A model generated the notes under the pieces. The model was given only the letters and a program-made list of their open reading frames with translations, was not told the origin of the DNA and did not search any database. Source: a virus (taxonomy: Duplodnaviria > Heunggongvirae > Uroviricota > Caudoviricetes). Taken from it: 47,757 nucleotides of DNA. Both the position numbers and the translations under genes were made by a program. Position 1 is the first letter of the stretch. Every line of letters starts with the position of its first letter. This document shows positions 2,442-45,097 of this stretch, piece by piece. The DNA is taken from the IMG/VR virus record IMGVR_UViG_2529292906_000010. One strand, 5' to 3'.

Positions 2442-3290
2442 ATGGATAGACCAATGCCGTCTCTACGTTCAGCTTACGTTTGTAATTTGTCGCCGGAGTT
2501 CCAGCCTCCAAAGCACCATACGCACAAGCTGCCGCTGGTGTTATCTGATGCTTTACAGCGCATTAATGGGCGTGATCTTACGTGTGAGGTTGCGTTCTAC
2601 GTTAATCAACCGTCAGAGCGGAAGCGCCGGATAAACGAGCATCGTCGTCGGGCGATTAATGCTGTGATCGCTGCGATTTTGCACCATGTAAACATCATTT
2701 CTAAGCGGGTTCTGGCTAGTGCTGAGGCGTTGGCTGATTTTTGCGGCCTGTCTACCGTATCCGAAGCTGGGAACAAGTCTATAACGCGCTGTACAAGGGC
2801 GTTGTCGCAACTGAAAGCGTTAGGTTTTATTGATTATGAACGTCGCTGGGATCGGGTGAATAAACAGTATTGGCCAGCGAAAATAGAGATTCGTGATCAA
2901 CTGCTGGAAACCGTTGGTATTACTGAACAAGCATGGAGACGTGCGGTTAGCCAGAAACTTAATTACTTCAATGCGAAGAATAGCGAACGGCTTAAAAAAG
3001 CGATAACGGAGGCTGATTATAAGCGTATTGTTATTCAGGAGCAGATGGAGAATGTATGGCGCCAGAGGAAGACGGCCAGAGAGATAAAGGCAAAACAGAA
3101 AGCAGCGGAGAGAGCTGCGCGTCTTGTCCGGGAAAAGGGAGAGGCCGAACTTCGTCATCAAATCACTAGAGAGGTTAGCCAGGAATTTGCTGATGGCATG
3201 TATCCAGGTGCTGACCTTGCATATTTACGATCCCTCGTTGAGCAGCGTTATAACAGGCTAAGAAAGACCTGGAAATCACTCCAACATTAA
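2442..3290 (+). CDS. repA: plasmid replication initiator RepA (IncFII RepA1-like)
   Basis: Recalled similarity to R100/R1 RepA1 (SITRCTRALSQLKALGFIDYE vs SITRATRALTFLSELGLITYQ); in-frame ATG at 2313 is an alternative start but overlaps the antisense hairpins. Confidence 0.75.
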   Translation: MDRPMPSLRSAYVCNLSPEFQPPKHHTHKLPLVLSDALQRINGRDLTCEVAFYVNQPSERKRRINEHRRRAINAVIAAILHHVNIISKRVLASAEALADFCGLSTVSEAGNKSITRCTRALSQLKALGFIDYERRWDRVNKQYWPAKIEIRDQLLETVGITEQAWRRAVSQKLNYFNAKNSERLKKAITEADYKRIVIQEQMENVWRQRKTAREIKAKQKAAERAARLVREKGEAELRHQITREVSQEFADGMYPGADLAYLRSLVEQRYNRLRKTWKSLQH

Positions 3291-3299
3291 CCCACCTGA

Positions 3300-3550
3300 A
3301 TGATGAATCCGGTTTTACCGGAGGATTATCTACGTCGCAATAAAATATCTGTTCAAAAAATAGTCTAAATTAATTTTCTCTAAACCTGGACACAGCAAAA
3401 ATATCGCCTTTACAGGCATCGGCTAATAAAGTTATCCACAGTTTTGATATGTATATGCAAATGGTTTTTTATAATAGATGCACTAAACAAATAAATGCAA
3501 AATCACTTTCTTTTATTAAGACTTTCTTTATTTAACTTACGCAGGCTTTG
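3300..3550. other. candidate replication origin (oriR-like) with DnaA box
   Basis: Consensus DnaA box TTATCCACA at 3432-3440 followed by ~100 bp of AT-rich DNA, directly downstream of repA as in IncFII replicons. Confidence 0.4.
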
Positions 3551-3828
3551 CCTGTGAATATGTTCGCCCTTGCAGCGAGCTAAAGCTCGCGCCGGTTCGA
3601 GTCGCTACGCTCAAATATACCTCCTCCGGCACTTGCCGGAGGCATGGAGCAGCCTGATCATCCTTTTCGAAACGGCGCGTTTCGAACTATACAAAATCAA
3701 TTTATATAAGGCCGAAATAAGGCCTACGGCCGGGCTTTGCAGGAGGAAGGGACGGACCTTATCAATAAACGTCGATAAATACGCACACAGTAGCAATCAG
3801 AACGCGACAAAACGTAAGAAACATCCTT

Positions 3829-3894
3829 TTCTATTAGACATAGAAAACTTGTCTTATACGCAATGTAGTAAATTTCTATTGCCACATAGGAAAA
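3829..3894. promoter_or_regulatory. two TTCTAT-N-ATAGAA palindromes upstream of HTH gene
   Basis: TTCTATTAGACATAGAAAA (3829-3847) and TTCTATTGCCACATAGGAAAA (3873-3894). Confidence 0.3.
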
Positions 3895-3921
3895 GATTTC
3901 CTACCATCGTAGATATAATAA

Positions 3922-4221
3922 ATGGAGATGGTTATGGATAAAGATACTGTTTTAAAAATGTTGAATCCGGCTTGTTTAAAAAAAGCGGATGAATGGGAAT
4001 CTCCTACATGTGGAGAAGTTCGGGCAGTCATTGGCCTGACCGGAATGAGCGGCTCGCAGTTGGCCAAAAAACTAGGCTTAAAAGATAGTCGCAATGTTCG
4101 CAACTGGCAGATGTTAAAGGAGTCCACATCCAGATCCAGCATTCCGTATGCAGCCTGGGCGCTGCTGTGTTACTTCGCTGGGTTAGGGTTAATCTTCATT
4201 GATAACAAAACAGATGTTTGA
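3922..4221 (+). CDS. helix-turn-helix DNA-binding protein
   Basis: 99-aa ORF; HTH-like segment GMSGSQLAKKLGLKDSRNVRNWQ; start may be ATG 3934. Confidence 0.5.
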   Translation: MEMVMDKDTVLKMLNPACLKKADEWESPTCGEVRAVIGLTGMSGSQLAKKLGLKDSRNVRNWQMLKESTSRSSIPYAAWALLCYFAGLGLIFIDNKTDV

Positions 4222-4746: not shown

Positions 4747-5100
4747 TTGAGCATGTGGACGGTACTTTTTAGCCAGCGATTTGACGGCTGGCTAAATGAG
4801 CAAGAAGACGCTCTTCAGGAAAAGGTTTTGGCTGATTTGAAAAAGCTACAGGTTTACGGACCTGAGTTACCCAGGCCATATGCCGATACCGTAAAAGGTT
4901 CTCGGTACAAAAATATGAAAGAGCTTCGCGTTCAGTTTTCTGGCCGTCCGATAAGAGCCTTTTATGCGTTCGATCCGATTCGCCGGGCTATCGTTCTTTG
5001 TGCAGGAGACAAAAGTAACGATAAGCGGTTTTATAAAAAACTGGTGCGTATAGCTGAGGATGAGTTTGCAGCACATCTGAACACACTGGAGAGCAAGTAA
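4747..5100 (+). CDS. type II toxin, RelE/ParE superfamily (HigB-like)
   Basis: 117 aa; toxin-first arrangement with stop overlapping the HTH antitoxin start; probable ATG start at 4753. Confidence 0.65.
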   Translation: MSMWTVLFSQRFDGWLNEQEDALQEKVLADLKKLQVYGPELPRPYADTVKGSRYKNMKELRVQFSGRPIRAFYAFDPIRRAIVLCAGDKSNDKRFYKKLVRIAEDEFAAHLNTLESK

Positions 5101-5399
5101 TGAGAACATTAGATGAGGTGATTGCCAGCCGTTCACCGGAAAGCCAGGCGCGAATTAAAGAAATGGCAGATGAGATGATTCTTGAGGTCGGCTTGCAGAT
5201 GATGCGTGAAGAACTCCAGTTATCACAAAAGCAGGTTGCTGAGGCGATGGGTATAAGCCAGCCAGCAGTAACAAAGCTGGAGCAGCGCGGAAATGATTTA
5301 AAGCTGGCGACATTAAAGCGTTACGTTGAAGCTATGGGAGGCAAATTAAGCCTGGATGTTGAGCTTCCCACAGGAAAACGAATAGCGTTTAACATCTGA
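5100..5399 (+). CDS. HTH (XRE-family) antitoxin, HigA-like
   Basis: 99 aa; HTH segment LSQKQVAEAMGISQPAVTKLEQ; translationally coupled to upstream toxin. Confidence 0.65.
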   Translation: MRTLDEVIASRSPESQARIKEMADEMILEVGLQMMREELQLSQKQVAEAMGISQPAVTKLEQRGNDLKLATLKRYVEAMGGKLSLDVELPTGKRIAFNI

Positions 5400-20871: not shown

Positions 20872-20912
20872 TATATATTTCTATAATTATATAAATATAT
20901 AGTTACAACATT
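20871..20912. repeat. TATAATTATA palindrome site G
   Basis: Core at 20882-20891 in AT-rich DNA after lysis cassette. Confidence 0.45.
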
Positions 20913-43976: not shown

Positions 43977-45097
43977 CGTTGCCGCGTGGTGGTTTGCCAG
44001 ATATTACTTTCGCAGATTCTAACCCGACTGATATAACAACTCGTTCAATCAGGGCTTTTGAGAGTATAACAGGTGAAACATTAGCACCTGCTGATCCACG
44101 TAGATTATTCATCTTATCATTGTGTGAGATTATTATACAGCAAAGAAAAGCTATCGATTTTTCTGCAAAACAAAACCTTCTTACATATGGTGAAGGTGAA
44201 TATCTCGACCATATAGGCTATCTGACGGATACGCCTAGGCTGGAAGCTCAATCTGCTTTGACTACATTTGAGTTTAATCTGTCAACAAAATTATCGGGGA
44301 TATATACAATACCTGCTAGCACTCAAGTTTCAACTGGAAATGGTGTTATTTTCCAAACAGATATTTTGTTGGAAATACCTGCTGGGAAAACAGTTGGTAC
44401 AGTCTCAGGATATGCTGTTATACCTGGTTTATCTGGGAATGGCTTTTTACCAGGGCAAATAAATGAGTTGGTGACTCCGTTGCCGTATGTTTCCAGCGTA
44501 AGGAATGTAACAACATCTAATTCTGGTGCTGATACGGAGTCAGATGATAATTATGCTGAAAGAATAAAACTGTCGCCGGAAAAACTGTCTACAGCAGGGC
44601 CGGAGGATTCTTATAAATATTGGACAAGAACAGCCAATCAGAATATAAAAGATGTGAATGTATATACACCATCGCCCGGAATTGTAGAAATCCGTTCTTT
44701 GTTAGAGAACGGAGATATACCTTCTGATGAACTATTAGAGCAGATAAATAGCGTTCTCTCTGCAACTAATATTCGACCATTCACAGATAAAGTTCTTGTT
44801 AAGAAACCAGAGAGCATTGAATACGATATAATAATTAAATACTGGATTAACTCATCGGACAAAAACAGAACAACTTTAATTCAAAGTGAGGTTGAGAAAG
44901 CTATTGATGAGTATAAACAATGGCAACGTTCGGTTATGGGAAGAGATATAAATCCAGATGAAATTATTCAACGTTTAAAAAATGCTGGGGCTAAAAGATT
45001 AGAAATATCAAGTCCTGTTTTTACTGTGGTTGGAGAGACACAGGTCGCCAGAGAGAGAAATATAAATTGCCAGTATGCGGGGTTAGAGGATGGCTGA
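43973..45097 (+). CDS. baseplate protein J-like
   Basis: 374 aa between W-like and I-like genes. Confidence 0.8.
   Translation: MTLPRGGLPDITFADSNPTDITTRSIRAFESITGETLAPADPRRLFILSLCEIIIQQRKAIDFSAKQNLLTYGEGEYLDHIGYLTDTPRLEAQSALTTFEFNLSTKLSGIYTIPASTQVSTGNGVIFQTDILLEIPAGKTVGTVSGYAVIPGLSGNGFLPGQINELVTPLPYVSSVRNVTTSNSGADTESDDNYAERIKLSPEKLSTAGPEDSYKYWTRTANQNIKDVNVYTPSPGIVEIRSLLENGDIPSDELLEQINSVLSATNIRPFTDKVLVKKPESIEYDIIIKYWINSSDKNRTTLIQSEVEKAIDEYKQWQRSVMGRDINPDEIIQRLKNAGAKRLEISSPVFTVVGETQVARERNINCQYAGLEDG

Follow-up and report, generated by a model that had tools for sequence, protein, structure and literature searches.

The virus record IMGVR_UViG_2529292906_000010 (Caudoviricetes), whose 47,757 nucleotides were analysed over their full length and are called the window here, is a phage-plasmid of about 47 kb that uses an IncFII-type initiator. 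Directly downstream of its repA gene lies a segment, 3291-3560, that is very probably the vegetative origin (oriR) of an IncFII-RepA-family replicon. Immediately beyond it stand three hairpins (hp1, hp2 and hp3), the first two of which evidently make up a conserved folded single-stranded DNA (ssDNA) element of about 90 nt. It is the minus strand that folds, which would be the template of the leading strand if replication proceeds rightward, away from repA. The comparisons presented here slightly favour a priming role of some kind for these hairpins. Two candidate primase starts would lie on this one template strand: the first is structured and abuts hp1 (module X), the second is unstructured but more conserved (module Y). 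The features on which the argument rests are the following.

2445-3290, plus strand: repA, IncFII-family replication initiator (Pfam IncFII_repA PF02387, E 1.3e-43), annotated as repA in 99%-identical plasmids
3291-3431, plus strand: spacer between repA and the origin, holding the conserved hairpin TCCGG-TTTTA-CCGGA at 3308-3322
3432-3440, plus strand: DnaA box TTATCCACA at the repA-proximal edge of the origin, the sole perfect copy in the 47.7-kb window
3453-3503, plus strand: three iteron-like repeats ATGCA(A/C) at 3455, 3478 and 3495 (spacing 23 and 17 bp), candidate RepA sites
3505-3539, plus strand: AT-rich direct repeats ACTTTCTTTTATTAA and ACTTTCTTTATTTAA, 17% GC; relatives have analogous TCTTTTA-rich stretches
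3540-3561, no strand assigned: small covarying hairpin CAGGC/GCCTG, with compensation in relatives, overlapping an inverted DnaA-like box TGTGAATAT (7/9 match to TGTGGATAA)
3565-3599, minus strand: module X, CGCCCTTGCAG, then hp1, then GCGCCGGTTCG (on the minus strand, the hairpin followed by CTGCAAGGGCG); candidate primer start A3574 with rightward synthesis
3575-3590, minus strand: hp1, perfect 7-bp stem GCGAGCT/AGCTCGC
3623-3642, minus strand: hp2, perfect 9-bp stem CCTCCGGCA/TGCCGGAGG in the conserved context GTAsCwCCC...GGGC
3666-3686, minus strand (by analogy with hp2): hp3, 9-bp stem TTCGAAACG/CGTTTCGAA, present in a sub-clade only
3732-3755, minus strand: module Y, unstructured primase-start-like motif GGGCTTTGCAGGAGGAAGGGACGG, with GGGCTTTGCAGGAGG at 3732 and CAG at 3740-3742

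Architecture of the origin

A first-pass annotation of this DNA had proposed a candidate oriR within 3300-3720, pointing to a perfect DnaA box at 3432-3440 and to an AT-rich stretch downstream of repA. Both are there, the box at exactly that position on the plus strand, and the proposal itself is borne out by the IncFII_repA gene upstream, by the offset of the DnaA box and by an architecture found throughout the family. We compared the region with R100, pGDT4, pKPC_UVA01, a Salmonella relative and about a dozen further lineages (about 17 divergent replicons), as well as with a motif-blind sample of 12 loci chosen by RepA similarity alone. The same order of elements is common to the divergent replicons and the motif-blind sample: a TCCGG...CCGGAGG hairpin, the DnaA box, three repeats, AT-rich repeats of the TCTTTTA type and a hairpin with an inverted DnaA box. 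The RefSeq relatives of the window, according to which repA starts at 2454, carry no annotation, or 'hypothetical' only, from repA to the next gene.

Matches to the DnaA box with at most one mismatch occur in the window at chance level (12 found, 13.3 expected), and the box is consequently meaningful only through its position and its conservation in relatives. It starts 142 bp past the repA stop; the corresponding offset is 141-177 bp in pKPC_UVA01, pAR-0407-1, pGDT4 and R100 (177 bp in the last of these) and 140-180 bp across the compared replicons. To its right, 3441-3539 contains 21% GC, against 44.5% for the whole window, and is among the three lowest-GC 100-nt stretches. The small hairpin at 3540-3561 takes other forms in relatives with its pairing intact (CAGAC/GTCTG, CACAC/GTGTG, CCCAC/GTGGG, CAGCT/AGCTG), and the DnaA-like box overlapping it is a perfect TGTGGATAA in several lineages. 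Together with the box at 3432-3440 it flanks the origin, so that DnaA-type boxes of opposite orientation stand at both ends.

The three ATGCA(A/C) repeats have counterparts at equivalent positions in other replicons, where their sequence is lineage-specific (CTGCAAA, CCGCAAA, ACCCGCAA). Since this is the pattern expected of initiator sites, it suggests that the repeats are iterons to which RepA would bind; the IncFII family is usually described as iteron-less. The AT-rich repeats at 3505-3539 are the probable unwinding element. The spacer at 3291-3431 we take to be the counterpart of the R1 'CIS' region, with a function presumed from what is known of R1. Its hairpin, which recurs as TCCGG-N5-6-CCGGAGG directly after the repA stop in R100, pAR-0407-1 and the IncFII(K)-type plasmid L130, may belong to the cis-acting spacer or terminator described for R1.

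The RepA protein of the window shares 25% identity with R100 RepA1 and 38% with pKPC_UVA01 RepA, and the compared replicons as a whole range from 15 to 38%. The AT-rich cores of the window and R100 differ by eye, and a distant-mode blastn search of 3291-3800 against PLSDB matches classical IncFII plasmids only over about 3552-3612, so that nucleotide similarity to the minimal oriR of R1/R100 is not found. Because the RepA proteins are only 15-38% identical and the AT-rich cores cannot be aligned, we regard the window origin as the same kind of origin as that of R1/R100, with a different sequence.

By analogy with R1/R100, initiation would proceed as follows. RepA, acting in cis, would bind the three ATGCA repeats and host DnaA the box at 3432-3440; jointly they would open the AT-rich repeats at 3505-3539, and DnaB would be loaded and would unwind rightward, away from repA. 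The next 200 bp would be the priming-signal region on the minus strand, the rightward leading-strand template, and the unwound strand would fold into hp1, hp2 and hp3. Host primase DnaG would then start the leading strand at a CTG, either the one abutting hp1 (primer from A3574, hairpins 5' on the template) or the one in module Y at 3732-3755; with a start at module Y, the hairpin block would serve as an auxiliary structured domain. We incline, by a little, to accept this scheme as a whole, from the RepA-DnaA origin to the priming hairpins on the minus strand.

The hairpin block and the strand that folds

Three tight hairpins had been noticed at about 3560-3690 in the first-pass annotation, and all are present, with stems slightly longer than described there. 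The window contains about 36 distinct perfect hairpins of at least 7 bp, or about 0.75 per kb, and hp1-hp3, three hairpins in 112 bp, are its densest cluster. On either strand, the segment 3562-3692 folds better than its shuffled versions do (z -3.3 and -3.2). A 123-aa open reading frame running over the hairpins (3570-3941) was considered and rejected: it has a TTG start and is unannotated in all RefSeq relatives, and the region changes by stem covariation, not by codon.

In the blastn search of 3291-3800 against PLSDB, about 3565-3612 stands out as the one short piece common to more than 100 plasmids whose backbones are otherwise unrelated. Among them are pKPC_UVA01-type, IncFII(K)-type, Yersinia, Serratia and Pantoea plasmids, and the distance from their repA to the block is always about 270-320 bp. 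Pattern scans of metagenome and viral contigs yielded about 130 further loci, whose central parts comprise 107 distinct sequences. A pattern fixing CCCTTGCAGC and GCGCCGGTTCG supplied most of the loci compared; evidence independent of that pattern comes from the blastn search against PLSDB, from viral loci retrieved by RepA and from the motif-blind RepA-selected loci. A scan of genome_contigs with CAGCGN{8,12}CGCGCCGGTTCG was too loose, giving mostly chance matches in high-GC genomes, and was useful only for L034 (Mixta) and L061 (Erwinia). Of the 112 loci with enough upstream DNA, 102 have an IncFII-family repA ahead of the block in the same orientation, its stop lying 262-464 nt before the block.

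The hairpins are real structures by the measure of covariation. Among 37 distinct hp1 stems, 34 pair by Watson-Crick rules throughout the 6 bp, and hp2 has 44 distinct versions; hp3 is found in three stem versions with compensatory changes (TTCGAAACG/CGTTTCGAA, ACAAAACG/CGTTTTGT and GCGAAAAG/CTTTTCGC), all 65-82 nt past GGTTCG. A covariance model built from 45 sequences gives exactly one match per locus, in the window at 3561-3648 on the minus strand with 68 bits, and matches 9 of the 12 motif-blind loci; the block is also present in all six viral loci retrieved by RepA. In the alignment made with this model, 97.6% of cells are paired, against 83.3% in shuffles and 33-59% with slid partners, and 10 of the 14 base pairs have changed on both sides.

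The non-Watson-Crick positions of hp2 are strongly asymmetric. On the plus strand they comprise 19 A·C and one G·T, under a scoring neutral between the two, and this excess of A·C on the plus strand (G·T on the minus strand) identifies the minus strand as the folded, selected one. In the minus-strand alignment one pair occurs as G·U in 40 rows and as G-C in 34, and calculations with DNA energy parameters give the minus strand the greater stability in 83 of 91 sequences.

A block of about 55 nt with hp1 is cleanly missing in R100 (45030-45060 of its locus in our set, L005) and in L288 (about 2810-2850), where hp2 is kept directly after the inverted DnaA-like box; in this respect R100 is atypical. 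The full covariance model, of module X plus hp2, matches neither R100 nor phage G4. The persistence of the block across RepA lineages 15-38% identical suggests that a host factor, and not the initiator of the plasmid, recognises it, and the conservation of unpaired sequence across such highly diverged replicons points to a host factor that reads sequence, for which primase would be the obvious candidate.

Candidate primase starts and competing readings

CTG occurs on the minus strand at 3575-3573 (module X) and at 3742-3740 (module Y), and both motifs are conserved. The GenBank record of G4 annotates the primer from 3997 to 3970; in the primer sense it reads GCTTTGCAG-TAG-hairpin I, with the A of CAG as the start, and phage alpha3 has GCTTAGCAG-GAG and then a hairpin I that covaries with that of G4. 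In the window, CCCTTGCAG stands directly before hp1, and the minus strand reads hairpin-CTGCAAGG, hp2 and hp3 lying beyond the hairpin towards the 5' end of the template. The likeness to the complementary-strand origins of G4 and alpha3 comprises a template CTG embedded in CTGC(A/T)A(A/G)G, the TTGCAG shared by module X, and a geometry that is identical at module X, with a hairpin on the template 5' side of the CTG and further hairpins beyond. The Salmonella variant (CCTAGCAG) retains the CAG of module X, as do 8 of the 9 motif-blind matches. A G4-type primase start at the CTG abutting hp1, with the primer running from A3574, is plausible by this analogy. A blastn search of phages with the G4 origin returned only relatives at least 90% identical.

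Module Y lies 12 nt beyond the right edge of the interval flagged in the first-pass annotation. It has 13/15 identity to G4 at the annotated primer start and 14/15 to the corresponding region of alpha3 (GGGCTTAGCAGGAGG). Within the motif GCTTwgCAGG...GGGG the CAG is invariant in 70 of 70 distinct versions, and by our reading by eye a module Y-like motif with CAG is found in about 10 of the 12 motif-blind loci. The 9-mer alone occurs in the window at chance frequency, so the weight of the motif comes from its conserved position. From the hp1 block to module Y the distance is 118-150 nt in compact replicons (about 140 in the window), against about 300-390 nt, mostly 360-385, in classical IncFII plasmids. 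R100 has the motif at L005 45390-45412 (GGTCTGGCAGGGCTGGGGATGGG), aligning with 3732-3755 of the window and placed about 365 bp to the right of the end of the minimal oriR as we locate it; the G site of R1/R100 reportedly lies about 380-400 bp downstream of oriR. Module Y may be the canonical G-site start.

Neither motif of the window combines both features of G4 and alpha3. Module X has hairpins on the 5' template side, with compensatory changes and a minus-strand fold, and the weaker sequence match; module Y has the sequence, and lacks a conserved hairpin on its right flank, which is 5' on the template. We considered an either-or relation between the hp1 block and a CAG before an R100-type downstream hairpin, and rejected it: the trinucleotide varies freely, and many plasmids carry both. 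The hairpin block may be a G site of its own, may form the second domain within a composite one, or may be of another nature.

A more specific proposal is that the hp1-hp2 block would be an undescribed G4-phage-like leading-strand start, recognised by host primase and abutting the unwinding element in most IncFII-RepA-family replicons, including the clinically important IncFII(K)-type and pKPC_UVA01-type plasmids, and that R1/R100, with their start about 400 bp downstream, would represent a lineage that has lost the block. We advance it tentatively, as possible rather than probable. Several points weigh against the scheme given above, with its priming hairpins on the minus strand. The retrieval pattern fixed CCCTTGCAGC and GCGCCGGTTCG, so that the conservation of those letters within the set it retrieved is circular. 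R100 and L288 have lost hp1, and L290 both hp1 and hp2, so that replicons can do without the block, at any rate if other elements are present. At module X, CAA replaces CAG in one divergent lineage, L284. The CTG of G4 stands 3 nt outside the hairpin, whereas in module X the C of the CTG belongs to the closing pair of the stem. For a start at module Y, the hairpins are on the wrong side (3' on the template) for hairpins I-III of the G4 style. That the R100 motif at L005 45390-45412 is the R1/R100 G site is presumed from the position reported for that site. As to direction, the GC skew of the plus strand is positive in each 2-kb bin from about 1 kb to the window end, which fits rightward unidirectional replication from near 3.5 kb; nearly all genes, however, are on the plus strand, and this could alone yield a positive skew.

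If module Y alone were the G site, as is probably the case in R1/R100, the hairpin block would act otherwise, by blocking re-annealing of the origin, by protecting a single-stranded gap until the fork returns, or by marking the end of the returning fork. The wider distribution of module Y (about 10 of the 12 motif-blind loci, against 9 of 12 for module X), its closer match to the starts of alpha3 and G4, its presence in R100, which lacks hp1, and the Ter-like TAGTTACAAC sites directly after hp2 in classical IncFII plasmids all speak for such an arrangement. A passive structure would nevertheless leave unexplained why the unpaired CCCTTGCAG and GCGCCGGTTCG are kept across RepA lineages 15-38% identical, and why the CTG is kept by hp1 in 8 of the 9 motif-blind matches; we consider that module Y is rather unlikely to be the whole answer. 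The first-pass annotation had likened the hairpins to single-strand initiation (primosome assembly) sites. Stem covariation, minus-strand wobble and the CTG by hp1 make single-strand initiation plausible, but nothing is specific to primosome assembly of the PriA type. A PriA-dependent, phiX174-type assembly site on the minus strand would suit a hairpin-rich, single-strand-specific element beside an origin, and it is by structure rather than sequence that such sites are recognised. Strong conservation of unpaired sequence would, however, be unexpected of a site of that kind. The AAGCGG hexamer, present in several PriA-type sites, is absent by eye from both strands of 3560-3700, and R1-type plasmids are not known to need PriA, which also counts against this distinctly improbable explanation.

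Two further explanations set aside the single-stranded DNA itself. The hairpins could act in a minus-strand RNA, as a terminator or insulator against leftward transcription into the origin or as a small RNA, and the G·U-compatible changes would suit RNA as well as DNA. A simple scan for Rho-independent terminators does flag hp2 on the minus strand, but in this window only: relatives have AGGTAC or AGCTCTC after the stem, the conserved AGGTAC sets the T-rich tail off from the stem, and that tail is not a T-run in relatives. Neither hp1 nor hp3 is followed by a T-run on either strand. With no promoter-like site on the minus strand rightward to 4300, neighbouring genes on the plus strand and no match of the Rfam 15 covariance models in 3300-3720 at E up to 1, we judge action as RNA very unlikely. 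Finally, each inverted repeat of the window is perfectly palindrome-like, as duplex sites for a dimeric protein would be; yet the stem letters change freely while pairing is kept (37 and 44 versions), and the asymmetry of A·C and G·T would be meaningless for duplex DNA. A chance cluster is excluded by conservation in more than 100 loci, and the best argument against chance is comparative, since compensatory changes preserve each of the hairpins in other replicons; we give duplex sites and chance together hardly any credence.

Host element and comparison with known systems

The first 7 kb of the window hold tail-fibre and tail-fibre-assembly genes, then a Hin/Cin-type invertase, the IncFII_repA protein and small helix-turn-helix (HTH) or toxin-like genes. 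The segment 2130-3950 has 98-99% identity to 60 non-mobilisable PLSDB plasmids of 46-52 kb, mostly from E. coli, and likewise to three Yersinia phage isolates, vB_YpM_39, 41 and 44, and these relatives show the window to be a phage-plasmid. The analysis supplies an origin annotation for a widespread E. coli phage-plasmid family. The 'plasmid-like' phage vB_YpM_HQ103 was considered as a relevant relative and rejected, since the paper describing it concerns a different, 32-kb phage. The p0111 replicon type, judging by record titles, is one of P1-like elements.

Several neighbouring features deserve mention. The minus strand of 2312-2432 (121 nt), which is antisense to the repA leader and ends shortly before the repA start, folds as RNA into one long stem-loop and a strong intrinsic terminator (minimum free energy -69.5 kcal/mol, z -10.8). 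This predicted RNA looks like a copy-number control RNA of the CopA type; a search of the segment against Rfam gave terminator-like matches only, all below threshold. To the left, the Hin/Cin-type invertase (1577-2131) adjoins oppositely oriented tail-fibre and tail-fibre-assembly genes (Caudo_TAP 255-788), and the relative pTD225C4_47 carries two opposed tail-fibre-assembly genes. The gene layout of 1-2131 is that of an invertible host-range segment, as in Mu or P1. To the right, 4747-5399 holds an overlapping pair of genes for a Gp49-like (HigB/RelE-type) protein and an HTH_3 protein, annotated in the Salmonella relative as a RelE/ParE toxin and its partner; the pair is likely an addiction module adjoining the replicon.

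Within the IncFII RepA superfamily the structured ssDNA element of about 90 nt exceeds even the initiator in conservation, and yet the model plasmid R100 lacks part of it. Should it prove to be an entry site for primase, the account of how the leading strand starts would be refined for a very large group of resistance and virulence plasmids, and a cellular priming signal of the G4 type would be available in compact, testable form. Otherwise it would be a conserved element adjoining the origin, with some other role. With phiX174-type primosome assembly sites it has in common that these are hairpin-rich, strand-specific ssDNA signals near plasmid origins; it differs in that no sequence feature ties it to them.

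Comparison with the oriR and G-site sequences of R1/R100, which the first-pass annotation had suggested as a check, gives a divided answer: hp2 and module Y are both in R100, but the hp1 block is missing there, and the best match to a primase start lies outside the interval originally flagged. The plasmids agree in an initiator of the same Pfam family, in an origin downstream of repA on the same strand, in a TCCGG...CCGGAGG hairpin after the repA stop, in a DnaA box on the repA side of the origin with an AT-rich region after it, in an hp2-like hairpin just past that region (L005 45041-45058), in the TGGCAGG...GGGG motif of module Y further right and in a strongly folded antisense element upstream of repA. 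The R100 motif is conserved family-wide, and it is on the strand expected for rightward leading-strand priming at the G site. They differ in the hp1 block, carried by the window and not by R100, and in what follows module Y: in R100 the motif is succeeded within 35 nt by CAG-TA-CCGGC-TTAC-GCCGG-GCTTCGGCGG, and the window has no equivalent of this CCGGC/GCCGG hairpin there. The downstream block of R100 is loosely like hp1 plus CCGGTTCGG, and the window instead has its hp1 block about 165 nt to the left of module Y. A blastn search of PLSDB with the G-site region of R100 returned 5000 near-identical IncFII records and no outgroups.

In classical IncFII plasmids, hp2 is directly followed by two opposed Ter-like sites (TAGTTACAAC ... 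GTTGTAACTA) before the G-site region (L130 1590-1740; L005 45075-45230; many metagenome loci). No Ter site is found near the window origin, the sole GTTGTAAC of the window being at 20902, and other compact replicons are likewise without Ter-like sites. Seen against R1/R100, the classical IncFII plasmids and the origins of G4 and alpha3, the system described here is a known kind of origin in a variant arrangement.

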